A stretch of 64,000 nt of DNA, taken from the NCBI GenBank assembly GCA_013286645.1, contig JABDFJ010000004.1, positions 12 to 64,011 on the forward strand. The letters run 5' to 3'. This document shows positions 31,484 through 57,272 of this stretch, piece by piece. The notes beneath the pieces are model-generated. The model was given only the letters and a program-made list of their open reading frames with translations. It did not search any database and was not told the origin of the DNA. The stretch comes from Chlamydiota bacterium (GTDB lineage: Bacteria; Chlamydiota; Chlamydiia; Chlamydiales; Parachlamydiaceae). Position numbers and translations under genes: made by a program. Every line of letters starts with the position of its first letter. Position 1 is the first letter of the stretch.

Positions 31484-31490
31484 GAGGCAC

Positions 31491-34610: not shown

Positions 34611-34754
34611 TTGAAACACAGAGGCACAGAGAACACAGAGCGTTTGAGGTCTTGAGAAGCAATTACAAAGTTCTGTTTAATTGGATTTTGCAATTACGTT
34701 CCAAATAGATGAAACCAAACCTCTCTGTGTTCTCTGTGCCTCTGTGTTTCAAAA
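34611..34754. repeat. Family-D palindromic element (aaacacagaggcacagagaacacagag arms)
   Basis: ttgaaacacagaggcacagagaacacagag...ctctctgtgttctctgtgcctctgtgtttcaaaa. Related copies at 43987..44181 and 61086..61206, and a half-copy at 57148..57186. Confidence 0.85.
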
Positions 34755-34883
34755 TTCATTTTACACTCAGTCACTTGTCGATTTTCATAAATTTCATATT
34801 TTCTTTTAACCTTAAAAAGAGTATTCTCTTAATATTATTACGTTATTTTATTCTTAAAACGGCGCACAATATTTAGGGTTAGA

Positions 34884-39539: not shown

Positions 39540-39899
39540 TCAAGCTTTGTGGTCCTCGGAGCTTTCCCCAAAGAGGGAATCGAAACGCTTTTTGGGGTCC
39601 ACATTGCCACCAGCATCATCCACATCGTCGCCAAACAGACGCTTTGCCACGGACCCACTATCTACTTTCTTGGCAGGGGCTTGTCCAAGCAGTTTAAAAT
39701 CTTCACAGAAGTTTGTAGCTGTGCGATCGGCTACATAATCTGTACCTGGCACAGCGCAATCATTGGGTTGACCCGGTTTATAATAGATACAATTTTTGCA
39801 GCAATGCAAAGCTGCATTACACACATCGCAGATAGCCCGAAATGACAACTTTCCCCATGAGGGTTCATCAAGCGTTGCACCACAATTCCAACATTTCAT
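39540..39899 (-). CDS. Small Cys-rich zinc-ribbon protein
   Basis: MKCWNCGATL...CDVCNAALHCCKNCIYY...; ATGA overlap with the upstream MORN-repeat gene. Confidence 0.5.
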   Translation of the reverse strand: MKCWNCGATLDEPSWGKLSFRAICDVCNAALHCCKNCIYYKPGQPNDCAVPGTDYVADRTATNFCEDFKLLGQAPAKKVDSGSVAKRLFGDDVDDAGGNVDPKKRFDSLFGESSEDHKA

Positions 39900-42427
39900 T
39901 CCACATCATCCCATGCACGATTTTCTTGGGGGGTTTTCTTCTTATCAAGCAGCTTATCTTCTGCATAGGATTGAAGGACGAGAGACTTGCCTTCCGCAGT
40001 GTATTTGTTGAATTTGCCATGTCGTTTACCTGCATTATATTCTGCTTCAAAGATAAGCACTCCACTCTTGCTCCACTCCTTGCAAAGACCATTCAGCTTG
40101 CCATGGCAATAGTTGTAGAGACTGATGAGCTGTCCATTGGTAGCAAAGGTTTTTTCTTCCCCTTCCTTTAGATCTTCAACAAAGAGCACTTGCTTTTTGA
40201 TAACTCCATTGGGGTGGTATTCATAGGCCATTCCATTTTGGTTATCGTGGTGAAATTCTGCCGCGATGCTAATGCGTCCCTCATGATTGTATACAGTGAC
40301 AATCCCTTCTTTGAGCCCTTTTTGGTAAGGGGTGCTACCCACTTTGGTGCCAGCTTGGTTATATTCCGAGACTTCCCCTTCAAGCAATCCATTCACGTAA
40401 TTAGCTTCCAATGCTTTGACTTTACCAAAGAAGTCATCTAAAGGATAATAAACCTGATGCAGCCCATCCAGCTCATTGTTTTTATAGTGATAAACGTATT
40501 CACTGTCATCTGCTTTGCGGATATAATAGCGCCCTTCTAGCGAACCCTCATGATAATGAGCCTCCTCGAGGATCTCTCCAGCATTATCCCACAACACCTT
40601 TTTGCCATGGAGAATCCCATCGCGGTATTCCATGAGGATTTTACTTTGGCCATCAGGGAAATATCCCTTTTGTTCCCCGTGCAACTTCCCATCTTGGTAA
40701 TTCATCATACGCGCAATCTGTTGTGGGTGCTCATTTTCTATAGGATAGTAAACCCGTTGCTCACCGATAGGCAAACCACTTGCATAGTGTGAAACTTGCT
40801 GGGGAGCACCATCTTCAAACCAAGAGAGCCATTCTCCATCCAATTTACCAGCCACATATTGTCCTTTACTCGTCATCTTACCATTGGCATGAAATTCTTC
40901 CACAATACCATCAAGATTCCCGTTAATATGCTGAGAAACATTTTTTACAGTGCCATCCTCAAACCACTCTCGATGGCTCCCATGTTTGACGCCATTCACA
41001 TATTCACTTTGTGTTTTGAGTTTGCCGTTGTCATACCATTCTTGGGTTGTCCCTTCCAATAGCCCCTGCAGATAGACAGCTTCGCTGGCTTTTTGTCCAT
41101 TCGCATACCAGGTGTGACTCGGACCCTGTTTTTTACCTTGATCGTAGGTGATAGATACTGCTAGCTTGCCATCAGGATACCATTCCTCATAGACGCCATC
41201 TTTTTTACCACTTTTATATAGTGTTCGCAGTTTAGGTGTATTGTCAGCATAATGTTCTTGTTGCAAACCATCAAAATCGCCCCTCACGTACATGTATTGG
41301 CGCTGCACTTCCCCTTCAGGATAGTACTCCAAAAATTCGCCCTCGTGGACTCCATTGACCAAATAATATTGCTTTTTCAGTTTTCCAGCTGGAGTGTATT
41401 CTTTAACGGGCTCGACGAGCCTGCCGTAATCGTCATAATTGGCAATCCCAATCACTTTACCTTCAGGAGTGCTTTTGGTATGTTTACCTACAGGATTTCC
41501 TGCCACATAACGTCCCTCTCCGATGAGGATACCCTCAATAGAATAGTAGCATTCAGCACCCTGTTTTTTACCTTCGACGTAGCCCACGCGATAGCATTCT
41601 TTGCCATTATCATAGTACTGAACGTATGTACCATACGGTTGCCCCTGCCGGAAATCTTGCACTTCGGCCATGACTCCATTAGGATGATAGCGTGTTAAAG
41701 CATGGCGTTGTCGTTCGCTATTCAGCAACCCTTTTGTATAAAGAGCGACACGTTTAACTTTGCCATCCGGGTACCATTCGATGGATTCTCCAGTTAATAA
41801 ACCATCTTTGTAGTGACGAGAGGCTGCTTTTTTTTCCTCTTCGAAATATTGTGTCACTTCTCCCGTAATGACCCCATGACTATAATGTGAGCGCTCGGCG
41901 ATATCTCCATTAGCATGATATTTCTCCGCAGCTCCATCGTAAATTCCATGTTTTATAGGAACAAAAGACTTCAACAAGCCATTAGCATAAAAAGATTTCA
42001 CACTATGAAAGGGAACGTTTTTGTTATAAAAGGCAATTGTGTCAGCGCTCCCTTCTGGGCTGTAAACCACAGAAGGACCATGAAGCATAAATGCGTAGCT
42101 GCCGGCATCATCTGGAGGAAGGGCTAACAAGTCCGTTTCACTATACAGAGATCCCTCTGCTCTATATACCAGAAGCTTGACAGGCGATTTCTGTTCGGTA
42201 CCTTGCATAGGCTCTAACAATAACACTTTTTTTGGCGACCCATTTTCATACGCTTCCAAAATTTCCGGCACCCAATTGGGTTGGCGCATTTTCAACTTTG
42301 TTGATGGTGTAGGTATATGTGAACTTTCTTGAAGAGCTGCCTTGTTGGCAGTTTCTTGCGCAGCTAAAGAGCTGACGGATATAGAGCTAGCAATAAAAAT
42401 CACAGCAATAAAAAGGAACCGATCCAT
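39896..42427 (-). CDS. Exported MORN-repeat-variant (YwqK-like) repeat protein, about 840 aa
   Basis: More than 25 tandem ~23-aa units of the type G.(K/H).G....(W/Y)Y.(N/D)G.(L/K). Signal peptide MDRFLFIAVIFIASSISVSSLAAQ from ATG 42427. Confidence 0.75.
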   Translation of the reverse strand: MDRFLFIAVIFIASSISVSSLAAQETANKAALQESSHIPTPSTKLKMRQPNWVPEILEAYENGSPKKVLLLEPMQGTEQKSPVKLLVYRAEGSLYSETDLLALPPDDAGSYAFMLHGPSVVYSPEGSADTIAFYNKNVPFHSVKSFYANGLLKSFVPIKHGIYDGAAEKYHANGDIAERSHYSHGVITGEVTQYFEEEKKAASRHYKDGLLTGESIEWYPDGKVKRVALYTKGLLNSERQRHALTRYHPNGVMAEVQDFRQGQPYGTYVQYYDNGKECYRVGYVEGKKQGAECYYSIEGILIGEGRYVAGNPVGKHTKSTPEGKVIGIANYDDYGRLVEPVKEYTPAGKLKKQYYLVNGVHEGEFLEYYPEGEVQRQYMYVRGDFDGLQQEHYADNTPKLRTLYKSGKKDGVYEEWYPDGKLAVSITYDQGKKQGPSHTWYANGQKASEAVYLQGLLEGTTQEWYDNGKLKTQSEYVNGVKHGSHREWFEDGTVKNVSQHINGNLDGIVEEFHANGKMTSKGQYVAGKLDGEWLSWFEDGAPQQVSHYASGLPIGEQRVYYPIENEHPQQIARMMNYQDGKLHGEQKGYFPDGQSKILMEYRDGILHGKKVLWDNAGEILEEAHYHEGSLEGRYYIRKADDSEYVYHYKNNELDGLHQVYYPLDDFFGKVKALEANYVNGLLEGEVSEYNQAGTKVGSTPYQKGLKEGIVTVYNHEGRISIAAEFHHDNQNGMAYEYHPNGVIKKQVLFVEDLKEGEEKTFATNGQLISLYNYCHGKLNGLCKEWSKSGVLIFEAEYNAGKRHGKFNKYTAEGKSLVLQSYAEDKLLDKKKTPQENRAWDDVE

Positions 42428-42458
42428 GAGTAAGCCCGTTTTGTTTAATCTCGATTTT

Positions 42459-43652
42459 TCACAATTTTGGAAGTGCCACCGTCTCAACTTCATCTTGGGG
42501 CAATTGATAAGCTGCAGCACTACCAATTAGAAATAATCCCCCTAGAATAGCTAATGCTTTAGCTGGAGCGTCATCGGTGAAACAAGTAGCTAACACTCCT
42601 CCACCTACCTGTCCAATTCCTTCCGAAATGCACCATACCATTCCCATCAAGAAAGCAATCACCATCCCCTTTTGCTCCGGAGCCAATTGGGTTCCAAGCG
42701 AAATAGCCACAGGCTGCACCACCCCCACAGCAGCTCCCAAAATAAATAATAAGCTCAACAATGCCACATTGCTGTAAGCAGGAACAAATAGCAGGGTATA
42801 AAAGGCACACATCCCGATCAACATCGAAATCAATATCACCAGACGACTAGAAAAACGATCTGCTAAGTGACCTGCTGGAATCATCATTAAAGCCCCACCT
42901 AAGATAAACATCATATGCCCTCCTCCAAAAGAAATCCAGGGAGCATAACCACGTGAGCTAAGTAGATCGGGAAGCAAAAACATCGTCCCCCATAACATAC
43001 TTGCATTACATACTTGCGTAAAATAAAGCAGACGCAAGTCTCTATGGCGAAAAAAATTAATAAAAACTTTTAAATCAAAATGCTTGTTGGCTGTCAACAC
43101 ATTGGCTGGTTTCGGAGAGACTAAACTGATAAAGGCCACTAATACCAGAGCTACCGTAGGGATCGCCAACCAGACCACATGACCATCGAACCATTGATGA
43201 AAGGAAGTGAATAAAATCTGACTAAAAGCCATCCCAAAAGCACCGCCAGACGTAAACAACGAGATTAATAAGCCCTTACTTTTCGGTGATAATTCACTCA
43301 TCATACTAGCTGCGGAAGGATGGAAGGCACCAGAACCAGCACAAGTGCATAGATAGAGCGCGAATAGACACAAATAATTGTCGGTGTAGACAAAACAGGC
43401 ACTTGCCGCCGTAGCCAGCAAGCCGCCCAAAATTAGCGCTTTGCGGTAGCCCCTATCACTTAGGGAACCGAAAAGAACTTGCAAACCTTCTCCTACAAAA
43501 GCACAGATACCGCCAATCAAGCCTGCTATGGCCAGATCGAGATGAGCTAACGTCTTATACACGGGCCAGATGCCAATCATGACATCAACCATAAAATGGC
43601 CCAGACATACGATGATGACAGCCAGTAACAATGTTTTTTTCGAAGAGATCAT
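42459..43652 (-). CDS. MFS transporter
   Basis: 12-TM pattern. GSLSDRGYRK matches the loop 2-3 MFS motif. Confidence 0.8.
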   Translation of the reverse strand: MISSKKTLLLAVIIVCLGHFMVDVMIGIWPVYKTLAHLDLAIAGLIGGICAFVGEGLQVLFGSLSDRGYRKALILGGLLATAASACFVYTDNYLCLFALYLCTCAGSGAFHPSAASMMSELSPKSKGLLISLFTSGGAFGMAFSQILFTSFHQWFDGHVVWLAIPTVALVLVAFISLVSPKPANVLTANKHFDLKVFINFFRHRDLRLLYFTQVCNASMLWGTMFLLPDLLSSRGYAPWISFGGGHMMFILGGALMMIPAGHLADRFSSRLVILISMLIGMCAFYTLLFVPAYSNVALLSLLFILGAAVGVVQPVAISLGTQLAPEQKGMVIAFLMGMVWCISEGIGQVGGGVLATCFTDDAPAKALAILGGLFLIGSAAAYQLPQDEVETVALPKL

Positions 43653-43752: not shown

Positions 43753-43982
43753 TTTCGGGCAAGGGCACGCACGGTACATGTTCACGTTCGGTATAGCTTT
43801 CGTGCCCGTGTGCGTGCCCGTGCCCGTGCCCGAATTTATCTACCCGCTATCTTTAGAACTTTTAACCTTAATTAACGTTGCCGATCACGTTTTCATTCCC
43901 ACTCTTCTTTCGGGCACCGGCACGGGCACGCACACGGGCACGAAAGCTACACTCTCCCTGAACATGTACCACGCACGCGCCT
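43753..43982. repeat. Family-C palindromic element, copy 1 (cgtgcccgtg modules)
   Basis: gtacatgttcacg...ctttcgtgcccgtgtgcgtgcccgtgcccgtgcccgaa and its inverse ttcgggcaccggcacgggcacgcacacgggcacgaaag...gaacatgtac. The second copy at 56671..56871 shares the central spacer (cacgttttcattc.cactcttctttcggg). Confidence 0.85.
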
Positions 43983-43986
43983 CCTA

Positions 43987-44181
43987 ATTACCCATAAGTC
44001 CGCATTGCATTAAAAACACTATTCTGAAACACAGAGGCACAGAGAACATAGAGAGGGAAATTTTGTTTCGTTAAATACATATAGAGACTTCTCCATATAG
44101 AGACTTCTCCATCCTCTCTGTGTCCTCTGTGTCTCTGTGTTTCAAAAATATGGTTTGATGCAATGCGGACTTATGGGTAAT
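43987..44181. repeat. Family-D element nested inside the additional arm pair acccataagtccgcattgcat / atgcaatgcggacttatgggt
   Basis: Read directly from the sequence. Inner arms are gaaacacagaggcacagagaacatagagagg and cctctctgtgtcctctgtgtctctgtgtttc. Confidence 0.85.
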
Positions 44182-44343: not shown

Positions 44344-45396
44344 ATGAAAAAAATCAATAAGCCTGATCTGAAAAAGTTGGCCTTACTAGGTCTAGCAGGT
44401 GGCACAATCATAGCTTCGCAGCAAGCTTCAGCTGATCAGTTACAAGATCTCAATAACTATGGCACTCTATTAGCATTTGCTGGTTGTGGTGGCGGAAGCT
44501 GCGGTGCCAAGCTCCCAGTTCCACCTCAAACAGCAGGAAGAGAAACTGCTTGGAATGGCAGCTACAACCAAAGCGGACAAAACTATTACTCTGATTACCA
44601 ACAACCTTCACATGGTTGCGGTTCATCTTCACAACAATGGCAATCCTACAACTATCAACAACCATCTCACGGCTGTGGATCTGCTCAACCAGCGCCATCC
44701 TACTACACCAACGCACAACCACAGCAATCTCATGGTTGTGGCGCAGCTCAGCCCGCTCCTTCATACTACACCAACTACCAACCGCAACAATCGCATGGCT
44801 GTGGCGCAGCTCAACCAGCACCACAAGCGCAAGCTTCCTACCAAAATAACAATTCCCAAGGATGGAATCGCTATACTGCAGATGCAGCCCCTACTTCCAC
44901 AGATCAATCTACCATGCCAGCTCCCGCACCTGTAAAACCTGTAAAGCCAGGACAGCCAATGCCAACAGATCCAACTGCGCCACAAACGCCTCCTCCTGCT
45001 TCATACAACAACAGCAATGCACGCAATAATAACACCAGTCTTTCTGCCTATTTCACAGCCGATGCGAGCAAGCCTGCTACTCAACAAGCTAGCGACAAAC
45101 AAGCTCCAATGTCTGAAAGCGAGCTAGTATCCAAGCTTAATAGCGAAGGTAAAGCCACTTTTCAAAGCTTAGATCCTGCTGGCAAAGCTTTGGCTCTCAA
45201 GTTAGCTAACCAAACTTGCAAAGGTCAAAACGACTGCAAAGGCTTAAATTCCTGCAAAACAGCTAACAACAGCTGCGCTGGCAATGGCAGCTGCAAAGGG
45301 ACAAGCAAAGGACCTTTCACAGACAAAAATACAGCTGTAAAAGTAGCAGCTAAAAAAATGAGCGACAAGCGTGTCAACGCAGCTTCTCCAAGCTAA
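44344..45396 (+). CDS. Secreted repeat protein with four SHGCG tandem repeats and a 5-Cys C-terminal module; candidate MNIO substrate (large precursor)
   Basis: ATG 44344 behind AGGAGA. Signal peptide MKKINKPDLKKLALLGLAGGTIIASQQASA. Repeats lie at 44596..44841. The CKGQNDCKGLNSCKTANNSCAGNGSCKG module lies at 45208..45300. It is on the same strand as, and upstream of, the DUF692/DUF2063 genes. Confidence 0.6.
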   Translation: MKKINKPDLKKLALLGLAGGTIIASQQASADQLQDLNNYGTLLAFAGCGGGSCGAKLPVPPQTAGRETAWNGSYNQSGQNYYSDYQQPSHGCGSSSQQWQSYNYQQPSHGCGSAQPAPSYYTNAQPQQSHGCGAAQPAPSYYTNYQPQQSHGCGAAQPAPQAQASYQNNNSQGWNRYTADAAPTSTDQSTMPAPAPVKPVKPGQPMPTDPTAPQTPPPASYNNSNARNNNTSLSAYFTADASKPATQQASDKQAPMSESELVSKLNSEGKATFQSLDPAGKALALKLANQTCKGQNDCKGLNSCKTANNSCAGNGSCKGTSKGPFTDKNTAVKVAAKKMSDKRVNAASPS

Positions 45397-45472
45397 TTGG
45401 AGAAGTTATGCCATCACCTCTCGAACTCTATATTCGAGAGAATGGCATTTTATTTTCTGTCCGTGTAATTTA

Positions 45473-45499
45473 TTAGCCGGCATCAGCCGGCTAATTTTT
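45473..45499 (+). terminator. Intrinsic terminator or attenuator between the two precursor-candidate genes
   Basis: ttagccgg-catcag-ccggctaa followed by ttttt. A second hairpin ctctcgaa...ttcgagag lies at 45418..45440. Confidence 0.5.
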
Positions 45500-45521
45500 A
45501 AGTAAAACAAGGAGAATTTTA

Positions 45522-45845
45522 ATGAAAAAGTCCAAACTAACAAAACTCGCCTTACTCGGCATGGCCGGTGGTGTACTCGCTGCTGCACAGCCAAGCTTAG
45601 AAGGTGTCCAAGATAATAATTCTATCGACATCCAACACCTCATAGCAATGCCAAAATGTGCCGCGCATGGATGTGCCTCTTTAACGGCTGATTCTGACGC
45701 CCCTACTAAAGCAAGTGATGATAAAGCCAATGGGGTCGATTTAGACGATGACACCGATCAACCCAAAACCGATGATAAAACAAAAAATAGCACCCCTAAA
45801 AAATCGGACGCTCCAGCAGCTTCGAAATATATGCTTCAATGCTAA
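45522..45845 (+). CDS. Small secreted protein (107 aa) with KCAAHGC motif and a C-terminal Cys; second candidate MNIO substrate
   Basis: Strong Shine-Dalgarno AAGGAG. The signal peptide MKKSKLTKLALLGMAGGVLAAAQP is homologous to that of the 44344 gene. The tail is acidic and Lys-rich. Confidence 0.55.
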   Translation: MKKSKLTKLALLGMAGGVLAAAQPSLEGVQDNNSIDIQHLIAMPKCAAHGCASLTADSDAPTKASDDKANGVDLDDDTDQPKTDDKTKNSTPKKSDAPAASKYMLQC

Positions 45846-45878
45846 ATTGGGTGTTAATGAACGTGCACTGTAAGCGGC

Positions 45879-46149
45879 AAAAGGACCTAAAGAGGTAATT
45901 GCATAAGTCTCTTTTAATCGATTTTTGGATAATTTCAAGGAGAGAATGATCAAGATGGTACCAGAAGATTTGTCTTGAGCATGTATACCGAACGTGATTC
46001 AAAAGTTGGCATTTCCAGCTGCGCGAAAATCCCCGCGGATCAAATATCCCAAGCGACCCAATATTAGCAATATGGGGTCGCTTGGGATATTCGATCCCCG
46101 GAGTTTTGGCGCGCTCGAAATGCCAACTTTTGAGTCACATTCGATATAC
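45879..46149. repeat. Family-A 5' fragment plus a separate 167-bp palindrome (45983..46149)
   Basis: aaaaggacctaaagaggtaattgcataagtctcttttaatcgatttttggat, followed by arms gtataccgaacgtgattcaaaagttggcatttc... and ...gaaatgccaacttttgagtcacattcgatatac around inner arms atcccaagcgacccaatatt/atatggggtcgcttgggat. Confidence 0.8.
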
Positions 46150-46301
46150 TTTAATAAATAAAAACTTTCTTCGCGTTATCTTCGCTTACTTCGCGACCTT
46201 CGCGGTTAAATAGTGCGCTACTCTAATTTGTGATGAGGGTTATTTTTCCTCCACGCAAAAAAGCTTTTTGTATATCATACATATTTTATCTGGTAACAAC
46301 C

Positions 46302-47180
46302 ATGCAACGTCGATCATCACTCCCCAATTTAGGCATCGGCATAGGGCTGCGCATCCCGCACTATGAGGACATCTTTACACAACAGCCTAATATCGACTGG
46401 TTTGAAATCATCAGTGAAAATTTTATGGTTGATGGAGGCAAGCCACTCGAAAATCTACATCGCATACTCGAAAGATATCCCGTCGTACAGCATGGAGTAT
46501 CTTTAGCTATAGGCAGTCCAGATCCCCTCGATTTTGAATATCTCAAGCAACTCAAAGCCCTGACCAAAATTACTAAGACTCCATGGGTTTCCGACCATCT
46601 ATGTTGGGGACGGCTTCCTGGGGCACATTATCACGATTTACTTCCCTTGCCCTATACAAAAGAAGTCATCAACTATGTAGCTGAGCGTGCCCGCATTGTA
46701 CAAGATTATCTCGAATTGCCATTTGCCCTCGAAAACTTATCTTCATATGTCGCCTTCCGTAAGGATGAAATGACTGAATGGGAATTTTATAGCGCCGTCG
46801 TAGAAAAAGCTGACATCTTTATGATGCTCGATGTAAACAACATTTATGTCTCTAGTCGCAATCACGGTTTCGACCCCAAGGAATATTATACAAACATCCC
46901 TCTCGACCGCGTGATACAAATCCATCTCGCTGGGCATAGCGATTATGATGCTTATGTTTTAGACACACATGATAACTATGTTAGAGATGAAGTGTGGAAG
47001 ATCTATGCCGACGTTTACCCTCTTACAGGAGGGGTATCGACATTACTCGAATGGGATGATAAATTCATTAGCTTCCAAGACACCTGGGATGAAGCCCTTA
47101 AAGCCAAACAATTCCAACAAGATATCCATCAGCGTCATCCTCATTTAGCTAAAGCTGGTTTGCAGGAGCTATGCAAATGA
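46302..47180 (+). CDS. DUF692/UPF0276 protein = multinuclear non-heme iron oxidase (MNIO; MbnB/BufB/HvfB family)
   Basis: LGIGIGLRIPHYEDIF, IDWFEIISENFM, HGVSLAIGS, WVSDHLCW, PFALENLSSYV, LDVNNIYVSSRNHGFDP and IHLAGH follow the conserved order of DUF692 TIM-barrel proteins. Start set at ATG 46302. Confidence 0.85.
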   Translation: MQRRSSLPNLGIGIGLRIPHYEDIFTQQPNIDWFEIISENFMVDGGKPLENLHRILERYPVVQHGVSLAIGSPDPLDFEYLKQLKALTKITKTPWVSDHLCWGRLPGAHYHDLLPLPYTKEVINYVAERARIVQDYLELPFALENLSSYVAFRKDEMTEWEFYSAVVEKADIFMMLDVNNIYVSSRNHGFDPKEYYTNIPLDRVIQIHLAGHSDYDAYVLDTHDNYVRDEVWKIYADVYPLTGGVSTLLEWDDKFISFQDTWDEALKAKQFQQDIHQRHPHLAKAGLQELCK

Positions 47181-48076
47181 CCTATGATGCTAAAGTACCC
47201 ACACTTTTGAAGCGCGAGCAACAGTGGTTTGGAGGTATCATCGGACGCCCTATCGATGAAGATAGCCGCATGAACCCCATCGCCCCTTCTGGCGAACCTA
47301 TGGAAATAGAAGCAGCGGACCATATTGCACCCAGTCCCACACTGAGACCTGCGCAACGCATCCAAATATACAACCAACAATACTGGTGGCGTCTGCTCAA
47401 TACATTGCATGATTCTTTTCCCATGCTTACGCGTCTATTTGGTTATTATGATTTCAACAAAACCATTGGCATTCCCTATTTAGTCAAAAATCCACCACAC
47501 CATTGGTCGTTGAATTTATTAGGAGATCATTTATTGCAATGGCTAGAAGGCTGCTATCATGCTAAAGACAAAAAACTCGTATGCAATGCTGCCCATTTAG
47601 ATTGGGCCTTCAGCCATAGCTTTGTGGCAGGGCAACGCCCTCCTATCACCGTTGAGCAGCTATCAAATGCTGAAGAGAGAGAACAAATCTTAAGCCAAAC
47701 CATTTATTTACAGCCCCATATCCACTTATTTCAGATGGAACACCATCTGTTTAATTTTAGAAACGAATTTTTAAAAGAAAATCCTGAATATTGGCTGACA
47801 AATGATTTCCCCAAACTTGAACGCGACAAAACTTATCTCTTCATTCTATACCGCAATGCAAAAAAAGATATTTCATGGAAAGAAATCTCTCTTGGAGAAT
47901 ATCATTTGCTAAGCTTCTTCAAGCAGGGAGCGACAATAGAAAACGCATGTGATTGGCTTGAAAAACAAGACGACACCTTGTGCGAAGAAGCCACGAACAA
48001 TTTACAACTATGGTTCCAAGAATGGTCCCAGCGGGGATGGCTTTCTCTTTCCCCATCACTTACACCCGCCTTATGA
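47171..48076 (+). CDS. DUF2063-domain protein (MbnC/BufC/HvfC-like MNIO partner)
   Basis: IQIYNQQYWWRLLNTLHDSFPMLTRLFGYYDFNKTIGIPYLVKNPPHHWSLNLLGDHLLQWL fits the DUF2063 N-terminal helical domain pattern. It overlaps the MNIO gene by 10 nt. Confidence 0.75.
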   Translation: MQMTYDAKVPTLLKREQQWFGGIIGRPIDEDSRMNPIAPSGEPMEIEAADHIAPSPTLRPAQRIQIYNQQYWWRLLNTLHDSFPMLTRLFGYYDFNKTIGIPYLVKNPPHHWSLNLLGDHLLQWLEGCYHAKDKKLVCNAAHLDWAFSHSFVAGQRPPITVEQLSNAEEREQILSQTIYLQPHIHLFQMEHHLFNFRNEFLKENPEYWLTNDFPKLERDKTYLFILYRNAKKDISWKEISLGEYHLLSFFKQGATIENACDWLEKQDDTLCEEATNNLQLWFQEWSQRGWLSLSPSLTPAL

Positions 48077-49317
48077 CACCTCGTGAAGCCGCATATTGCG
48101 CCCTATTAGCCTCATTACGCCAGGAAAACTTCATCACCCATTCGCTTGAAGCATGGCAACAAAAACATCATCCCTCCTCACTAGACTTTGCCTTCGCCCT
48201 AGAAATAGCCTCTGGCTCTGCTCGTATGGCTCTTGCTTTAGACCATATTGCCGCACAACTTTCTACCCATCAAAAACTGTCACTCAAATTGAAAGAGCGC
48301 GCTCTATTGCGTACCGCCATTTATCAACATTACTACATGGATAAAGTGCCCCTTTACGCCATTGTCAATGAAACCATCAACATCGGTAAAAAATATTGTC
48401 ATCGCACATTTGTCAGTTACCTCAATGCCATGCTGCGACAATTAAATGTCATATCACCGACCCTCCCAACTGGTGACTCTACACATAATTTAAGTGTCCG
48501 CTATTCCTATCCTGAATATTTTGTCCAGCAGCTAGTGAAAGACTATGGACAAGCAACCACCATCGACATCCTCAATGCTGGCAATCAACGTCCTGTCACC
48601 ATGGTGCGGTTACGTCCCGGTATGCATTTAGAAGGAGATGCCTTTAGACAACTTACCCCTCTTAAACACGCCGAGCTTCCCGTCGCGATTTGCTATTTGC
48701 AAAATGTTATGATTGACATAGCAGCTTCTCCAGGGTGTTACATCCAAAATGCCACACCAGCCACATTAATTGCCGATTTAGCCCAGCTGAGTCCGACGCC
48801 CCAACGCATTTTAGATTTATGTGCCTCGCCTGGAGGCAAATTACTTGCAGCCCACGATGCCTTCCCTCAAGCTACTTTGTACGCCAATGATATCTCTCCC
48901 GATAAACTGCAACGCCTCACACAAAATCTAATCAAATATAAAACATCGGCCCAATTGTCGTGTGGACAAGGAGAAGATTACCCCACCAACGAACAATTTG
49001 ATATCGTCATTTTAGATGTACCTTGCAGCAATAGTGGTGTGTTAAACAAACGTTCAGAGGCACGCTGGCGCTTAACACCGGAAGCCTTGCAACAATTAAA
49101 GTTAACACAGCAAAAACTGTTAGCACACGCCTCCAAATTGATCAACAAAGAGGGTGTGCTTTGGTATCTAACGTGCAGTATTCTTAAAGAGGAAAACGAA
49201 CAGCTGCTAGCAGCGTTTTGTCAGCAGCATGCCATGAGAATAACCTATTCCCGCACCGTCTTGCCCAATGTGGAAGGATGGGATGGAGGCTATGCTTGCT
49301 TATTGCAAAAAAGCTAA
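48073..49317 (+). CDS. rsmB: 16S rRNA m5C methyltransferase (RsmB/Sun family)
   Basis: NusB-like N-terminal domain, SAM site DLCASPGGKLL, and catalytic ILDVPCSNSGVL and TCSI. ATG 48073 overlaps the DUF2063 stop (ATGA). Confidence 0.8.
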   Translation: MTPREAAYCALLASLRQENFITHSLEAWQQKHHPSSLDFAFALEIASGSARMALALDHIAAQLSTHQKLSLKLKERALLRTAIYQHYYMDKVPLYAIVNETINIGKKYCHRTFVSYLNAMLRQLNVISPTLPTGDSTHNLSVRYSYPEYFVQQLVKDYGQATTIDILNAGNQRPVTMVRLRPGMHLEGDAFRQLTPLKHAELPVAICYLQNVMIDIAASPGCYIQNATPATLIADLAQLSPTPQRILDLCASPGGKLLAAHDAFPQATLYANDISPDKLQRLTQNLIKYKTSAQLSCGQGEDYPTNEQFDIVILDVPCSNSGVLNKRSEARWRLTPEALQQLKLTQQKLLAHASKLINKEGVLWYLTCSILKEENEQLLAAFCQQHAMRITYSRTVLPNVEGWDGGYACLLQKS

Positions 49318-49862
49318 CAACAGCAGCCAGTGCTTGATACGGGCTTTTGTTGGCTTGGCGGCAAGGCTATCGCACTGATCAGGCGTCCTCCCAAATCCTT
49401 GACTATGCCAACCGCTTCACGACCGATCCACAATCCAAGAAATAAACCACAAAAAGGCACATAAAATTGAGGATCATGGCGCATGTGAGCCCCTATGAAG
49501 GTAGCTGTGGCAACAGTGCCGATTTCAGAAGGGAAGCGCATTCCGGAAAGAAAATCCATATAACCTTGCGCACACACAGGTTTGCTTTCCCCTGCTGGAA
49601 ATAGAGGCTTCTTTAACCAAGAGCAGGAGAAGGCATATCCTCCACCAACGATAATACCTAAACCTAGACTGACACCAAAATGCATAGGGGCAATCCATGC
49701 CGCAAAGATGCCGATAGCAACGCGACAGATGCGGTCAATAATCTTAAGCCAGGGCGATGCCTTGGAGGTTGGCTGACAACAACTAGTTTGATTTACGTCC
49801 GCCACAGGTTCCTTGGGTGCTACGAGTGCAGCGGGTGCAACAACAACAGAAGATAAATGCAT
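49314..49862 (-). CDS. Hypothetical membrane protein with Cys-rich termini
   Basis: GAGAGG Shine-Dalgarno. Two paired hydrophobic segments (VAIGIFAAWIAPMHFGVSLGLGIIVGGGYAF and VPFCGLFLGLWIG). SCC near the N-terminus and GCCC at the C-terminus. Confidence 0.45.
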   Translation of the reverse strand: MHLSSVVVAPAALVAPKEPVADVNQTSCCQPTSKASPWLKIIDRICRVAIGIFAAWIAPMHFGVSLGLGIIVGGGYAFSCSWLKKPLFPAGESKPVCAQGYMDFLSGMRFPSEIGTVATATFIGAHMRHDPQFYVPFCGLFLGLWIGREAVGIVKDLGGRLISAIALPPSQQKPVSSTGCCC

Positions 49863-50021: not shown

Positions 50022-50774
50022 ATGCTCTATAAACGTCATCATGAGTTACATTGGCTTGAATTCGAACTGCTGGCCGATTGTCCAATCATTCACGGATCGT
50101 TTCTACGCCATGGAGGAACAAGCACAGGCCCCTTAGGCAGTCTCAATCTAGGCAAAAGTAGAGGCGATCTACCTGAAAATGTTAGTGCAAACATAAAAAA
50201 AGTTGCCGATACCCTCTCTTTACCCGATATACTCTCGGCTAGAATCTGTCACGGTGACGCCATCACGGCGGTCAATAACGCTCACCTAATCCCTCCCATG
50301 AGCGATGGATTGTCCACCAGCACACCCCATTTAGGCCTGATGGTTACCCAAGCCGATTGCCAAGCAGCCATCTTCTATGACCCTATCCGCCATGCTTTAG
50401 CGAATGTCCATTGTGGCTGGAGGGGCAATGTACAAAATATCTATGCCGCTACAGTGAATCACATGCAGCAAGTCTATGGCTCCATGCCTGCCGATCTCAT
50501 CGTGTGTATTTCGCCAAGTTTAGGACCCGATAGCTCCCAGTTCATTAACTATAAAGAGGAATTGCCTGCCGATTTTTGTGCTTTCCAAATCAAAGCCGAA
50601 TATTTTGACCTGTGGGCAATTAGTGAATGGCAACTTACAACAGCTGGCATACTCCCACACCACATTCAAATTGCCCGCATAGACACTTTTGCCCATCCAG
50701 CAGACTACTTTTCTCACCGCCGTAACCCTCAGTGCGGCCGTCAGGCTACGATCTGTGCTTTGCGAACAAGATGA
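50022..50774 (+). CDS. pgeF: YfiH/PgeF-family (laccase-domain) protein
   Basis: HGD..., GLMVTQADCQAAIFYDP and HCGWRG motifs in the canonical order. Confidence 0.8.
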   Translation: MLYKRHHELHWLEFELLADCPIIHGSFLRHGGTSTGPLGSLNLGKSRGDLPENVSANIKKVADTLSLPDILSARICHGDAITAVNNAHLIPPMSDGLSTSTPHLGLMVTQADCQAAIFYDPIRHALANVHCGWRGNVQNIYAATVNHMQQVYGSMPADLIVCISPSLGPDSSQFINYKEELPADFCAFQIKAEYFDLWAISEWQLTTAGILPHHIQIARIDTFAHPADYFSHRRNPQCGRQATICALRTR

Positions 50775-50841: not shown

Positions 50842-51162
50842 ATGCAAAAGCTATCCCTTTGCAGTTTACTATTGGGTTTCTGTTTCTTGCACACCCAAAC
50901 CGTGCAAGCTGATTGGGTCAATGGGTATTATGTTGAGCCAGCACCTGCTGTGGTTGTCGAACCTGCCCCTGTAGTAGTCGCAGAACCTGCTCCTGTTGTT
51001 GTGAGCGGTGGATATTACGGCGGCGCCGTATGGGGAAATGATCATTGGCATGGTTATCATGATGGCCATTATTCCTATCACTATGATAACTACCATTATG
51101 ATGATCATCATCATTATGGTAATGAGTATCATGGGGAAAGAGAAGGCGGCCACCGACGATAA
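50842..51162 (+). CDS. Small secreted His/Tyr-rich protein (106 aa)
   Basis: AGGAGG Shine-Dalgarno. Signal peptide MQKLSLCSLLLGFCFLHTQTVQA. Three EPAPxVV repeats, then HWHGYHDGHYSYHYDNYHYDDHHHYGNEYHGEREGGHRR. Confidence 0.5.
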   Translation: MQKLSLCSLLLGFCFLHTQTVQADWVNGYYVEPAPAVVVEPAPVVVAEPAPVVVSGGYYGGAVWGNDHWHGYHDGHYSYHYDNYHYDDHHHYGNEYHGEREGGHRR

Positions 51163-52467: not shown

Positions 52468-53820
52468 TTACACACTATTAGAAAGCTTACTTTTGAGGGC
52501 CTGCAGATCGACCTCCTCCACGTTTGTAATATGCTTACAAATCTCCATTAGCAATTGATCTTGCCTACGTCCTTTAACAAGCGCTTCAGTATAAGGCATG
52601 CAACTAAAGGTCACCATCGAATATTTCGACAAGAATTCTTCAGGGTAAGCGGCTTCTAGAGCACCCTCTAACTTGCTTTTCAGCTTAAACAGCGGATCGC
52701 TAACCCTTTCGCGTAGCTCAACAAAGTTATCAAAGGAAAGCTCAGCAATAGCATCTGTATTTGCCCTTCGCCCTTGCTCATAAGCATGGAATATCAAATC
52801 CCACTTCCCCGCATGTTCATCAATACAACGACTAAGAAAGGCACAGTTCTCAAATCCACAATTCAAACCTTGACCATAGAATGGAACAATACCATGTGCA
52901 GCATCACCTATTAACAAGATTTTGTTTTGAAAGGACCATGGATCGATTTTCACCGTCGTCAAGCGCCCCACAGGATACTCAATCATTTGTCTAAAGAAAT
53001 CTTTCATTAAAGGCAGAGCATCGCTAAACTCGCGTTGAAAGAACGCAACAGCCGCATCCTGCTGCTTGAGATGTGCAAAGCTCCTTTCTCCCTCGTGGGG
53101 TAAAAAAAGTGTGCAGGTAAAAGAACCATCAGGATTTGGCAAGGCGACCATTAAATGCCCACCTCTTGGCCACAAATGTAAAGCATTTTTTTCCAGCAGG
53201 TGACCTTGTGACGCAGGAATCGTCAACTCTTTATAATCGTAATCAAGGTGTTGTTGCGAAAAATTAGTGTAGGGCACACGCAAAAGAGAGGTGCGGATCG
53301 CCGACCACATCCCTTCTGCACCAAAAGTAATCGATAAAGGTCTTTTATGCATTAATTTTGAACGCATATTTTGGAAAAGAATTGTCTGTGCTTTAAGATC
53401 AATACCCAAGCAATTTTCGTTATAATGAAATCTGATATTAGAGTTCATTGCAGCTTCATCTAATAATACTTTATTTAGCTCCATCCGAGTGATTGAATAA
53501 ATCAAACGATCTGCACGTGGACTATATGGAATGAAATGCTGCCGTGCATCTTTATCGTGCACGAGGCGCCCTTTCATCTGCACAGCATGTGGCAAGAGCT
53601 GTTTATTCACACCTACCTCATTGAGTGCACAAAGACCGCGTGTTGATAGAGCCAAATTGATAGAGCGCCCTTCAGGCTCCATATGAGAGCGAGGATCCCC
53701 TCTCTTTTCAAACACATCGACACTGTATCCTTTTTTTGCCAAATGAAGCGCTAAAAGAGTACCCACAGGGCCTCCTCCGACAATTGTGAGCTCTTCTTTG
53801 ACACCATGATTTGTTTTCAC
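52468..53820 (-). CDS. kmo: Kynurenine 3-monooxygenase (FAD-dependent)
   Basis: [28 protein letters not shown] dinucleotide fold, [23 protein letters not shown]-like motif, ~450 aa. GTG start overlaps the kynU stop (GTGA). Confidence 0.8.
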   Translation of the reverse strand: [450 protein letters not shown]

Positions 53821-55082
53821 TTGTCAGCCTCTTGTTTTAAAAATCGGTAGAGTTCATAGACGTCACTAAAGGTGTTATATAAAGGCACAGGTGCAATACG
53901 AAGACGATTGGGAGGACGTAAATCACAGATAAAACCGGCACACTTAAGGCGTTCCAATAGATCTCCTGCTTGATGTTTGACTAAAAGCGTCAATTGGCAC
54001 CCTCTTTCTGAAGCTTGTTGGGGCGTTATCACCGATAAATTTGGATGATCCACAGCATTAACGAGGAATTCTAGATACCCTGTTAGCCGGATACTTTTTT
54101 CACGCAAACGCTTCATTCCTGCTTGTTGAAAAATATCTAATGAGGCTCTTAGGCAAGCTAAAGATAATATCGAAGGATTACTCAACTGCCACCCTTCGGC
54201 ACCTTCAATGGGCTTAAACTCGAGATTATTCATAAACCGGGTCTGTAATTCATGCCCCCACCACCCTGCAAGCCTTGGCAAATCATCCTTATGATGCTTT
54301 TGATGAACAAAACACCCTCCGATAGTGCCAGGACCTCCATTAAGATATTTATAGGAACACCAAACTGCAAAGTCCACTTGATCCTCATGCAATGTCAACT
54401 CTCGATTTCCCATTGCATGTGCAAGATCGAATCCAACGACACATCCTTGTTGATGTGCCATCTTAGTAATATGAGCAATATCAAAGGCTTGTCCACTGTA
54501 ATAATTGATCGCTTCCATCATGACAAGCGCGATGGATGCACCTTCGTTGTGCAAAATTGTATCTATCTCTTCAGCAGGTACAATCCCTTTGTTAGAAGCC
54601 GGCAGCACCACAATTGCCTTGGCTGGATCTAAACCATGGAATTTTACTACGGAACAAAGGGCATAATAATCCGATGGAAATAGATTGGCATTAATGAGAA
54701 TCTTATACCTTGTAGCTGTGGGACGATAAAAGGAGACGAGCATCAAATGCAAATTCACCGTTAAACTATTCATAAAGACAACTTCGGTGGGCTTCCCTCC
54801 TATTAAATCAGCGGCCTTATCTGTTAATAACTGCTGGTAGAGAATCCATGGAGAACCATTTTGATGGTGTCCTTCAACACCTAAATATTTCCATGTCTCC
54901 AGCTCTTTCATAACATATGGAACGACATCTTTAGGTTGGGCTCCAAGTGAATTGCCTGTGAAATAATGTGTATCTTGTCCATTACTTTGCTTTGGAATAT
55001 AAAACTTATCCCTGAAGTCTCGCAACACATCCTTTTGATCTTGCAGCAACGCATAGTCTGCATCTAAAGCATAGCTTTCCAT
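53817..55082 (-). CDS. kynU: Kynureninase (PLP-dependent)
   Basis: FYIP...YFTGNSLGAQPK..., ...FAVWCSYKYLNGGPG... (PLP-Lys region), ...RLAGWWGH.... Start moved to ATG 55082. Confidence 0.85.
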   Translation of the reverse strand: MESYALDADYALLQDQKDVLRDFRDKFYIPKQSNGQDTHYFTGNSLGAQPKDVVPYVMKELETWKYLGVEGHHQNGSPWILYQQLLTDKAADLIGGKPTEVVFMNSLTVNLHLMLVSFYRPTATRYKILINANLFPSDYYALCSVVKFHGLDPAKAIVVLPASNKGIVPAEEIDTILHNEGASIALVMMEAINYYSGQAFDIAHITKMAHQQGCVVGFDLAHAMGNRELTLHEDQVDFAVWCSYKYLNGGPGTIGGCFVHQKHHKDDLPRLAGWWGHELQTRFMNNLEFKPIEGAEGWQLSNPSILSLACLRASLDIFQQAGMKRLREKSIRLTGYLEFLVNAVDHPNLSVITPQQASERGCQLTLLVKHQAGDLLERLKCAGFICDLRPPNRLRIAPVPLYNTFSDVYELYRFLKQEADK

Positions 55083-55089
55083 CGCACAC

Positions 55090-56130
55090 CTATTTCTCTT
55101 TAATGACAGAAAATAATGGAATGTAGCTGGCTGGTAGTAAGAGCATGGGAATAAGATACAAATCCGCAAACACATCATACTTTTCAACTGTTGCCTGCAA
55201 ATAATGCACACCAGAAGAGCCTCCAGTGCCTTTTTTCCAGCCAATCAACTTTTGGACCATTAAGCTATGCCTATAGCGCCACAACAAAAAGCTCGCATTG
55301 ACATCCATGACTTCAGTGAGCAATAGATCCGACACATGTAGCAAGGGATGGTTTCGATAAAGACGGATGAACAATGCCCCCAGAAATGCCTTATAAGCAA
55401 GGCGATGTTCGCCACGCTGCAACGATGCTTCATACTCGGCCTGAACAAAATGTTGCTGAAAAATCGCTTGTAGCTCCTCGATGCGCTTAGATACCCCAGG
55501 AGTGTCATCCACACTTTTTTTAGCATCTAATATCATCTGCTCAAAAGCCTCTTGAAAGGCGAATTGAAAGTCATAATGCTCTGTTTTAAGATAAGGTAGT
55601 GTCTGCAACCATCTCTCTACATGATCAAATAATGAAAGCTCGCTTTCAACGCGACGTAAGATTTCCTGCTGATCGTGCTTTGCTCCGAATTCATAGGGGC
55701 ATTTAGCATACGGCACTCTCTCATCTCGCTTGATGCCGAATTTGGCTTCGATGAGACGAAACTGATGACTTTGAAATCCCGACATTGTCCCTAACAAACC
55801 CCGGAAATTCATATATTGCAAGGGAGTTAACGTCTCTAAAACATCTAATTGTTGGATCAATAAGCCAAAAATTTTATTGATACGTTGCAAACGCATCAAG
55901 ATAAGTCCCATATCGCGTTCAGAGGCTTGTTCTTTAAAAATTCCAAAGATACTGTCGAGATCTGCAATGATTTGCTTAAACCACAATTCATACACTTGAT
56001 GCATGATAATAAAAAATAACTCCTCATGCACCGGCTGCCCAGCCTCCCCACTCAAAAGCTTCTGGGCGGAAAGCACTTTGTCCAGCTGCAAATAATCAGA
56101 ATAATGTTCTTTAGGAGGTGTTTTTTTCAT
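55090..56130 (-). CDS. kynA: Tryptophan 2,3-dioxygenase
   Basis: YSDYLQLDKVLSAQKLLS....VHEELFFIIMHQVYELWFKQI is the TDO N-terminal signature. ATG 56130 is preferred over TTG 56145. It overlaps the upstream gene's stop by about 20 nt. Confidence 0.85.
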   Translation of the reverse strand: MKKTPPKEHYSDYLQLDKVLSAQKLLSGEAGQPVHEELFFIIMHQVYELWFKQIIADLDSIFGIFKEQASERDMGLILMRLQRINKIFGLLIQQLDVLETLTPLQYMNFRGLLGTMSGFQSHQFRLIEAKFGIKRDERVPYAKCPYEFGAKHDQQEILRRVESELSLFDHVERWLQTLPYLKTEHYDFQFAFQEAFEQMILDAKKSVDDTPGVSKRIEELQAIFQQHFVQAEYEASLQRGEHRLAYKAFLGALFIRLYRNHPLLHVSDLLLTEVMDVNASFLLWRYRHSLMVQKLIGWKKGTGGSSGVHYLQATVEKYDVFADLYLIPMLLLPASYIPLFSVIKEK

Positions 56131-56656
56131 TTTGCCCCTTTTCAAGTGGCGGTTGCATCACATAACCACATCTCTTGCACCGCCTTTTTTCTTCATCATC
56201 ATAAAAGCGTTTGAAAATTTCGGGCAATTGATGTTCGACATCATTAACAGCTACAAATTCTTCGTACAGCTTATGATGACACTTTTCACAATACCACTGA
56301 AATCCATCGAGTTCAGAACCATGCCTTTTATATTCGATCACCACCCCAATAGTTCCCGCTGGCCGCTGTGGCGAATGAGGTGTCTTGGATGCAATGAGAA
56401 ATATCTCCCCCTCACGGATAGGCACATCGAGGCTTTGCCCATTTTCAATAATTTTTAAGACGATATCTCCCTTAACTTGATAAAAAAATTCTTCCCCTTC
56501 ATTGATGTGATAATCTTTGCGCGCATTCGGACCTTCCACGACCATCACAATAGTATCAGTATCTTCCCAAATGACCTTGTTACCTACAGGCGGCTTAAAA
56601 TTTTCATGATTTTCTTCGATCCATTTCTTCAGATCTATGGCGGATTTTGGAAACAT
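56111..56656 (-). CDS. 3-hydroxyanthranilate 3,4-dioxygenase (cupin) with a C-terminal rubredoxin-like site
   Basis: FKPPVGNKVIWEDTDTIVMVVEGPNARKDYHINEGEEFFYQVKGD...EGEIFLIASKTPHSPQR...WYCEKC...CKRCG aligns along its whole length with bacterial HAO (NbaC) as I recall it. Confidence 0.85.
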   Translation of the reverse strand: MFPKSAIDLKKWIEENHENFKPPVGNKVIWEDTDTIVMVVEGPNARKDYHINEGEEFFYQVKGDIVLKIIENGQSLDVPIREGEIFLIASKTPHSPQRPAGTIGVVIEYKRHGSELDGFQWYCEKCHHKLYEEFVAVNDVEHQLPEIFKRFYDDEEKRRCKRCGYVMQPPLEKGQNEKNTS

Positions 56657-56670
56657 TGATTATTCCTAAA

Positions 56671-57186
56671 GTACATGTTCACAGTAGCGATCTAAGAGAA
56701 TAAATTTCGTGCCCGTGTGCGTGCCCGTGTGCGTGCCCGAATTTATCTACACGTTATCTTAAGGACTTTAAACCTTTGAACCTTATCTATCACGTTTTCA
56801 TTCACACTCTTCTTTCGGGCACCGGCACGGGCACGCACATGGGCACGAAAGCCACACACCTCGTGAACATGCAATGGTGTCAAATTAAAAAAATATTTAC
56901 AACTAAAAATTGAGGCTAGTCTAGCTTCAATGAGGCATGGGCGCACTGAGACGATTGCAAAAGTCAATTGCTGAGCAAAAAAAGAACAGGATGGGCAGGA
57001 TAGGCAGGATGTACCTTGCAGCAAGATCAACGATGGAAACGATGTAACGATATAACGATTTTTTTTGAAATCTTAATAGGATCGCTAAAATACTCATTGC
57101 AATTCAAAGCTTGATGAATATGACTAGTGTTTTTGCCACACTAATTGGACTTCTCCGTGTACTCTGTGCCTTTGTGTTTCAAAAAT
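56671..57186. repeat. Divergent-promoter spacer filled with repeats: family C copy 2 (56671..56871), family F copy 3 (56985..57059), family D half-copy (57148..57186)
   Basis: Direct sequence similarity to 43753..43982, 2668..2743 and 34611..34754 respectively. Confidence 0.85.
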
Positions 57187-57272
57187 CACCTTGATAAATA
57201 TCGTTACTTGAAAAACTATCACAAAACTGCTTAAGCTGCTAATTTCATGCTTTACAACTGAAAGGCACAGTC

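Follow-up and report, generated by a model that had tools for sequence, protein, structure and literature searches.

We analysed a 64,000-nt stretch of DNA (hereafter the window) from a Chlamydiota bacterium (GenBank assembly GCA_013286645.1, contig JABDFJ010000004.1). On its plus strand, at 44344-49317, lie five genes in the order preA, preB, MNIO (multinuclear non-haem iron oxidase), DUF2063 partner, and rsmB. We read this locus, at a probability of about 0.7, as a divergent Buf2-type bufferin cluster (a "captophorin" of the Cys-Lys group) that would produce RiPPs (peptides made on the ribosome and modified after translation) by a bufferin-type mechanism; it is a divergent variant of a known bufferin system and not a new kind of system. 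A first-pass annotation had proposed a candidate new metallophore locus at this place, consisting of an MNIO-DUF2063 enzyme pair and two upstream exported proteins with cysteine motifs. An open reading frame (ORF) check of the window found all four of the ORFs (4/4) at the coordinates that it gave. Its suspicion of a Chlamydia-like host was also confirmed, because the closest relatives of the window MNIO come from metagenome-assembled genomes (MAGs) of Parachlamydiaceae and Waddliaceae, with 69-88% MNIO identity.

The oxidase and the genes coupled to it

The MNIO gene (46302..47180, +) encodes a BufB-type protein of 292 aa that matches PF05114 (MbnB_TglH_ChrH) over its full length with an E value of 3.5e-104. 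Among the NCBIfam profiles, the MNIO_BufB model NF050167 gives 322 bits, above its cut-off of 310, and the protein stays below the cut-offs of the HvfB, ApyH, ChrH, and MbnB models (244.7 bits against 360 for HvfB and 40.4 against 325 for the MbnB model TIGR04159). In alignments to the structures 3BWW and TglH (8HCI), the window enzyme keeps the motifs HG, SDHL, LEN, LDVNN, HLAGH, DTHD, and LLEWDD. The residues H64, H99, E144, D177, H208, H212, D221, H223, E250, and D252 fall within these aligned motifs and are conserved in all chlamydial orthologues, the assignment of ligands being taken from published work on MbnB and TglH. The window and all 27 chlamydial sequences collected retain the metal-binding motifs together with the Asp in LLEW-D-D. 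The profile match and the conserved motifs bear out the earlier view of 46302..47180 as a DUF692 protein with its metal ligands. A longer ORF of 316 aa, starting at 46230, was rejected on homologue alignments and on the position of the Shine-Dalgarno sequence.

MNIOs that act on Cys-Lys (BufA2-type) substrates have an Asp beside the catalytic Asp, whereas those that act on Lys-Cys (EGKCG) substrates have a Phe (PMC13097082). The window enzyme reads E-W-D-D at this site, and the catalytic Asp is followed by a second Asp in 26 of the 27 chlamydial MNIOs and by Glu in the remaining one. By contrast, the HvfB-like DUF692 structure 3BWW reads E-R-D-F (Asp-Phe), and it has Arg-Arg where the window MNIO has Arg-Ile. 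The window MNIO therefore appears to carry the Asp-Asp signature of the Cys-Lys-type enzymes, with the position equated to F250 of FonB by way of 3BWW.

The partner ORF (47171-48076) scores 45.8 bits on PF09836 (DUF2063; cut-off 27.2). The C-terminal NGO1945_C domain, which is of the RiPP recognition element (RRE) type, reaches 20.2 bits in the window protein (cut-off 27). Among 19 partner orthologues, DUF2063 is present in all and NGO1945_C in 12, with a best E value of 1.1e-6. Judged from these domain matches, the combination of DUF2063 and NGO1945_C in the orthologues is that of a PME-type-1 partner. Such partners are specifically associated with precursors that have Sec signal peptides (PMC12452194). 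Profile scores and orthologue domains agree in identifying the pair as a bufferin-type MNIO with a BufC-like PME-type-1 partner.

The ATG at 47177 is a better start for the partner (299 aa, 47177..48076, +) than that at 47171 (301 aa), because it overlaps the MNIO stop codon (47178-47180) as ATGA and lies 8 nt after a GGAG (47165-47168); the public gene call also begins there. The overlap of the two genes reported earlier thus stands, its size being more likely 4 nt than 10 nt. A further ATGA overlap, at 48073-48076, joins the partner to rsmB (48073..49317, +), identified by Pfam and NCBIfam as the 16S rRNA m5C967 methyltransferase. The overlaps at 47177-47180 and 48073-48076 therefore make MNIO, partner, and rsmB one translationally coupled unit, in which rsmB is co-operonic with the enzyme pair and is not thought to act on the peptide. 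No dedicated regulator lies near this unit. The order MNIO-partner-rsmB recurs in most of the chlamydial loci that we collected (L002, L004, L005, L008-L012, L014, L016, L037, and L040-L043), often followed by a PF02578 gene. One of these loci, L010 on a Parachlamydiaceae contig, has at 1-1062 (-) a second, frame-broken MNIO and part of a DUF2063 gene, some 6 kb away from the intact pair, and neither copy has an adjacent precursor.

Modular precursor candidates

preA (44344..45396, +) encodes a modular and probably exported precursor candidate of 350 aa, and its ATG, like that of preB, follows a strong Shine-Dalgarno sequence (AGGAG for preA and AAGGAG for preB). A longer preA reading of 367 aa from 44293 was rejected; the homologue alignment begins at the ATG at 44344, and the position of the Shine-Dalgarno sequence agrees. 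A word-indexed search returned 110 homologues, nearly all from Chlamydiota, and an exhaustive search returned 918, 480, and 217 cluster representatives at E values up to 1e-3, 1e-10, and 1e-30. The named homologues are all "hypothetical protein" from Parachlamydiaceae or Waddliaceae MAGs. An alignment of 103 sequences gives the plan of the family, which comprises a signal peptide with the motif LLAxGCGxxxC, a variable region bearing cysteines, a disordered linker, and a C-terminal domain with a Cys core.

The C-terminal BufA2-like domain of preA (residues ~255-346, ~95 aa; 45106..45381, +) consists of three helices, the Cys core, and a final helix. The core, CKGQNDCKGLNSCKTANNSCAGNGSC (45217-45294), contains C292, C298, C304, C311, and C317, four of which have Lys as the next residue, and its Cx5Cx5Cx6Cx5C pattern occurs in the window in the preA tail only. 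Residues 286-321 match positions 27-62 of the 79 positions of the NCBIfam BufA2 model NF050166 with an E value of 7.6e-9, and 102 of the 103 family members match the same model below its cut-off (best E 2e-10). In a BLASTP comparison, the core aligned without gaps over Cys I-V, at 54% identity (E 3e-7), to a canonical 83-aa BufA2 that is encoded directly upstream of a gammaproteobacterial MNIO (locus L033) and scores 72 bits on the BufA2 model. The five cysteines of preA from C292 to C317 therefore correspond to Cys I-V. As judged by these alignments, the C-terminal core of preA is homologous to BufA2, at a divergence that places it below equivalog level. AlphaFold2 (AF2), run on the 103-sequence alignment, predicts the helices at residues 258-289 with a predicted local distance difference test (pLDDT) score of 86-96.

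N-terminal of this domain lies the repeat region (44596..44846, +), with four SHGCG motifs (C92, C111, C132, and C153) that span 44611-44805 at a period of 19-21 aa; three of them are on 63-nt tandem repeats. Outside preA, HGCG occurs a single time in the six-frame translation of the window. The mid-region of the family is rich in Q, P, S, Y, and N, with a variable number of cysteines (mean 6) in the context [S/H/N]-[G/S]-C-[G/S/N]-[G/S/A]. Relative to local composition, His is enriched 10.8-fold at position -2 from these cysteines and Gly 4.4-fold at position -1. The HGCG motif is, on this comparison, a real feature of the preA family but an accessory module. The AF2 prediction for preA (mean pLDDT 54) has residues 20-250 disordered. 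The precursor of one locus, L009, has no repeats, and a precursor of another, L039, has three copies of an SHGCG-type repeat (WDHSCSHGCGS). The four SHGCG repeats and the 5-Cys tail are both present as first described. Their ranking, with SHGCG as the main core and the tail as secondary, is reversed here, since the tail resembles the BufA2 (Cys-Lys) core and the MNIO has the putative Asp-Asp signature.

The first 56 residues of preA form the N-module (44344..44511, +), a Sec-type signal peptide followed by the motif LLAFAGCGGGSC with the Cx4C pair C48 and C53. The N terminus reads MKK..KKLALLGLAGG..ASA, with a CGGGSC pair downstream. By inspection, its signal peptide runs from a basic MKKINKPDLKK through a hydrophobic LALLGLAGGTIIA to an ASA-type c-region; preB is laid out alike, and the arrangement is conserved across the 103 homologues. 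Conservation in these sequences reaches 90% or more at A13, G16, G20, A44, C48, and C53. Among all ORFs of the window, a hidden Markov model (HMM) of the N-module matched preA and preB only, the latter with an E value of 1.8e-14. The signal peptides of the two proteins are indeed near identical (KKLALLGLAGG in preA and TKLALLGMAGG in preB), as had been pointed out together with their Shine-Dalgarno sites. We propose the N-module as a recognition ("leader") element, and possibly it is also a site of modification. A reading of LLAFAG-C as a preA lipobox was rejected, as some 24 residues separate C48 from the hydrophobic core and the corresponding preB sequence is P-K-C; homologues in L020 and L026 have true lipoboxes directly after the h-region.

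preB (45522..45845, +) encodes the second precursor candidate, a 107-aa protein. Its signal peptide and the motif LIAMPKCAAHGC, which contains a Cx4C pair, are followed by a tail that is acidic and disordered, and the KCAAHGC and C-terminal Cys previously noted are both there. A word-indexed search for homologues returned preB alone, and its relatives were recognized by position and by the local N-module HMM. ORFs with the preB layout occupy the preB position in L002, L030, L008, and L012; those in L002 and L030 have a signal peptide, A-K-P-S-C-K-A-H-G-G-C, and an acidic tail. L040-L043 have a small ORF between the preA-like gene and MNIO. The N-module match and the ORFs of the same layout in L002 and L030 indicate that preB is a real, if fast-evolving, gene.

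Linkage, proposed mechanism, and alternatives

A genome scan for MNIO genes found 31 chlamydial loci, 27 of which had enough upstream sequence to judge. To detect upstream precursor ORFs in these, we used two local HMMs, one built on the N-module and the other on the C-terminal domain. One to four tandem ORFs with an N-module or a BufA2 core lie upstream of MNIO in 21 of these informative loci. The recurring order is a MORN-repeat protein (-), a major facilitator superfamily (MFS) transporter (-), the precursor or precursors (+), MNIO, partner, rsmB, and often a PF02578 gene. In the window, the first two are represented by an 876-aa MORN_2-repeat protein and an MFS transporter at 39896-43652 (-), divergent from preA, and their pairing with the precursor genes is kept in many chlamydial loci. 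Viewed from the precursor side, on long contigs, MNIO-partner-rsmB lies within 3 kb in five of six loci, usually together with a small ORF in the preB position. Relatives of the window thus keep MNIO/DUF2063 orthologues beside exported proteins with Cys motifs, as the first-pass annotation would predict. Its choice of the upstream exported proteins as likely substrates is strengthened by the BufA2-homologous core of preA and by this conserved linkage.

Two tandem terminator-like hairpins, each with a U-run, follow preA (45408..45495, +; 45408-45447 and 45472-45495; z-score -6.6). They may attenuate transcription and so yield a surplus of precursor transcript. The spacer between preB and MNIO contains palindromic elements (45879..46149) that resemble repetitive extragenic palindromes or miniature inverted-repeat transposable elements (REP/MITE-like). 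One is a dispersed 57-nt element (45879-45935) with seven further copies in the window, and the other is a 167-nt near-perfect hairpin (45983-46149; -108 kcal/mol, z-score -14.7). The spacer as a whole is 457 nt long in the window, as compared with 4 nt (L030) and 105 nt (L002) in the closest loci. The repeat elements had been offered as a distinguishing feature of the locus; they are present, but because the closest loci have spacers of 4-105 nt, we regard them as secondary insertions into a compact operon. Families of such intergenic elements are spread across the window, and two of them flank the precursor genes. Elements lie at 43773-43970, 43987-44181, 45879-45935, and 45983-46149, with copies at 4540-4716, 13009-13186, 20577-20752, 25105-25154, 34600-34755, 56705-56871, 57152-57186, and 61084-61206. 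No RNA family was matched in the window by Rfam, so the spacers appear to be without a riboswitch, and a promoter scan gave background level only.

By analogy with Buf1 and Buf2 of Caulobacter (PMC11626156) and with fontiphorin (PMC13097082), we envisage the following mechanism. preA and preB would be translated with their conserved N-module (Sec signal peptide and LLAxGCGxxxC), through which the MNIO and its DUF2063 (putatively RRE-type) partner would bind them in the cytoplasm; the signal peptide has been reported as part of the recognition sequence (PMC12452194, PMC11626156). Using O2 and its multi-iron centre, the pair would convert cysteines to 5-thiooxazoles, each with a loss of 4 Da. 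In Caulobacter Buf2, the four central cysteines each lose 4 Da, whereas Cys I and VI are unmodified and probably disulfide paired (PMC11626156). Because of this precedent, the likeliest sites in preA would be Cys II-V of the BufA2-like core (C298, C304, C311, and C317), and the Gly-flanked cysteines of the N-module and the SHGCG repeats are perhaps modified as well. The Sec system would then export the modified proteins to the periplasm, where they would bind or buffer the surplus of copper, and perhaps of other soft metals, encountered in the amoebal host.

Several observations weigh against this interpretation. preA reaches only 35.7 bits on the BufA2 model NF050166 (cut-off 60) and departs from its six-Cys signature, having five of the six BufA2 cysteines; the absent one, Cys VI, is the likely disulfide partner of Cys I in Caulobacter Buf2 (PMC11626156). 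AF2 assigns low confidence to the Cys core itself. The Asp-Asp argument runs through an alignment to 3BWW and not to FonB or BufB2 themselves. The partner scores 31 bits on the HvfC model, against a cut-off of 142, and searches of the PDB by sequence, with the single query or a 19-sequence profile, gave no meaningful solved relative. No precursor ORF adjoins MNIO in six of the 27 chlamydial loci, and conversely L039 has, at 6001-7874 of a 998-kb chlamydial contig, two precursor genes by a MORN-like gene with no MNIO within 6 kb. The strong hairpins in the 457-nt spacer and the two terminator-like hairpins after preA make co-transcription of precursors and enzymes uncertain. Finally, a Pfam scan of about 30 neighbouring ORFs (~20.9-61.2 kb of the window) found no copper-related or copper-transport gene. 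A PF02578 "Cu-oxidase_4" gene (50022-50774) was rejected as evidence for copper; we take the characterized members of that family to be nucleoside or peptidoglycan-editing enzymes.

These points leave room for other explanations. The BufA2-like core might be the sole MNIO substrate, with the Cx4C pairs and SHGCG motifs serving as unmodified metal ligands (metallothionein-like) or as disulfide sites in the envelope, and preB would then be no RiPP precursor. The Asp-Asp site of the MNIO is of the Cys-Lys type whereas the repeat cysteines precede Gly; repeat number and sequence vary freely among homologues, down to the repeat-free precursor of L009; the region is predicted to be disordered; and His beside Cys is what direct metal ligands would be expected to show. 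Yet in seven MNIO loci the sole adjacent candidate has an N-module without a BufA2 core, which argues that the Gly-flanked Cys motifs are themselves substrates. The flanks [G/S]-C-[G/S/N]-[G/S/A] of the repeat cysteines are also kept despite free drift elsewhere, and Cys-Gly is the preferred dyad of the related FonB, whose F250D variant still installs thiooxazoles. We hold restriction to the core to be somewhat unlikely, at a level that still deserves attention. We are similarly tentative about the converse extension of the bufferin interpretation, and rather doubt it in its full form. There, one MNIO/partner pair would serve one to four tandem, fast-diverging, protein-sized precursors that share only the signal peptide and LLAxGCGxxxC leader, so that the signal peptide acts as a universal RiPP leader. 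Thiooxazoles would form in GCGxxxC, H-G-C-G, and C-K contexts, with His-Gly-(thiooxazole)-Gly as a new metal site, and the product would be a disordered, polyvalent periplasmic copper sponge.

It is quite improbable, in our estimate, that the pair modifies the precursors with another chemistry, such as the oxazolone-thioamide of methanobactin or His cross-links, perhaps for a metal other than copper. MNIO reactions are diverse, the choice between thiooxazole and oxazolone-thioamide is disputed for close relatives, and neither the His-Gly-Cys-Gly context nor the missing Cys VI has a characterized precedent. Against this, the window MNIO is a BufB equivalog by score, and a 2026 study concludes that PME-type-1-dependent MNIOs broadly install 5-thiooxazoles. 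Chlamydiae build disulfide-cross-linked envelopes from Cys-rich proteins, and preA and preB could be such periplasmic or envelope structural proteins, unrelated to an MNIO that acts on another, unseen substrate and beside which they lie by inherited synteny. Such an explanation would account for precursor genes that stay next to the MORN and MFS genes (in L039 with no MNIO nearby) and for the repeat elements and terminator-like hairpins that separate them from the window MNIO. We consider it very unlikely in view of the significant similarity of the core to BufA2 in 102 of 103 family members and of a Cys spacing identical to that of a canonical BufA2 encoded beside its MNIO. The tight linkage in most loci, where the spacer can be as short as 4 nt, and the published correlation of Sec signal peptides with PME-type-1 partners also favour a bufferin-type cluster.

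Relation to known systems and surroundings of the locus

The closest described system is bufferin 2 (BufA2/BufB2/BufC2) of Caulobacter vibrioides, a member of the Buf_6/12Cys family and of the Cys-Lys group of captophorins. The two share a BufB-type MNIO (above cut-off in the window), a DUF2063 partner with an RRE-like domain (putative in the window), tandem precursor genes, a Sec signal peptide on the precursor, and the Cx5Cx5Cx6Cx5C spacing with Cys-Lys dyads seen in the canonical BufA2 of L033; in neither are there DoxX or sigma/anti-sigma genes. The absence of these genes had been listed as a departure from described systems. A Pfam scan indeed found none among the ~30 neighbouring ORFs (~20.9-61.2 kb), and Buf2 clusters normally lack them (PMC11626156, PMC12452194). 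Nor does a protein-sized precursor set the locus apart, as had been suggested, since Buf2 precursors of 51-367 aa have been described, along with tandem and stand-alone precursor genes and Sec signal peptides (PMC12452194). The differences from bufferin 2 are of another sort. preA has 350 aa instead of ~80 and matches the BufA2 model only below cut-off. Its core is C-terminal and lies between conserved helices, and two extra Cys modules (Cx4C and the SHGCG repeats) precede it. Cys VI is missing in preA and in most long family members. The chlamydial signal peptide and N-module are strongly conserved and common to precursors without the core, translational coupling ties the enzyme genes to rsmB, and the host is an obligate intracellular chlamydia.

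Likeness to other MNIO systems is more partial. Oxazolin (HvfA/HvfB/HvfC), fontiphorin, and gonophorin, the Lys-Cys (EGKCG) captophorins, also have repeat-built and sometimes protein-sized precursors with signal peptides, one Cys followed by Gly in each repeat, and the same enzyme and partner families. In contrast, the preA repeats read S-H-G-C-G without Glu or Lys in a disordered Q/P/S/Y-rich region, and the window MNIO is below the HvfB cut-off with Arg-Ile and Asp-Asp in place of the Arg-Arg and Asp-Phe of 3BWW. The "CxxxxC" precursors associated with MNIOs (PMC12452194) resemble the N-module of preB and preA, by description only, in having a signal peptide and a single Cx4C near MNIO and DUF2063 genes; the published group, however, comprises 76 proteins, all from Pseudomonadati and often with DoxX and Lactamase_B_2. 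In bufferin 1 (DUF2282) and methanobactin (MbnABC), an MNIO and its partner likewise turn cysteines into copper ligands, but preA and preB have no DUF2282 match. Methanobactins are secreted chalkophores with leader peptides that are not Sec signal peptides, and the window MNIO fails the MbnB model.

The claim that no member with this architecture had been described stands, within the literature searched, for the modular precursor and its N-module and falls for the cluster as such, as a 2026 captophorin survey already counted 11 Parachlamydiales MNIO-PME1 clusters with precursors. A published table of complete genomes credits Waddlia chondrophila and Protochlamydia amoebophila each with a single MNIO and a single DUF2063 gene and with no Buf1, Buf2, or EGKCG precursor (PMC12452194). 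In the literature searched, we found no discussion of chlamydial bufferins, nor a description of the tripartite precursor, of an N-module common to precursors with and without a BufA2 core, of the loss of Cys VI, of a helix-flanked core, or of the coupling to rsmB. All of the preA family (217-918 cluster representatives) scores under the curated BufA2 cut-off, an annotation gap that a profile built for the family would close. With three Cys contexts on one polypeptide and one enzyme, preA lends itself naturally to testing how MNIOs select their sites and whether a Sec signal peptide serves as leader. To our knowledge, obligate intracellular chlamydiae are not known for natural products. If the proposed chemistry is right, environmental chlamydiae would make ribosomal copper-binding proteins, which would connect them with the way in which amoebae and macrophages poison intracellular bacteria with copper. 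Up to seven MNIO genes are present in Legionella, which also lives in amoebae (PMC12452194).

Two further ORFs lie close downstream of the operon. The first, convergent with rsmB at 49314-49862 (-), encodes a 182-aa product in which a long hydrophobic segment is accompanied by CC in the N-terminal part and GCCC in the C-terminal part, and has no Pfam or NCBIfam match. The second, at 50842-51162 (+) and 3 kb past the MNIO operon, encodes 106 aa that begin like a signal peptide and include a tail rich in His, Tyr, and Asp (HWHGYHDGHYSYHYDNYHYDDHHHYGNEYHGE). It has no Pfam match, and its product is possibly secreted and metal-binding. At 30470-33418 (+), a MoxR-type AAA ATPase, a DUF58/VWA protein, and an unassigned 348-aa ORF stand in a row that resembles a MoxR-VWA system. 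A complete cluster for the tryptophan-to-quinolinate (kynurenine) pathway of NAD synthesis occupies 52468-58139, with an FAD monooxygenase (52468-53820, -), kynureninase (53817-55244, -), tryptophan 2,3-dioxygenase (55090-56145, -), 3-hydroxyanthranilate dioxygenase (56111-56656, -), and quinolinate phosphoribosyltransferase (57273-58139, +). Given the part that tryptophan plays in the interplay of chlamydiae with their hosts, this cluster is worthy of note in a Chlamydia-like organism.

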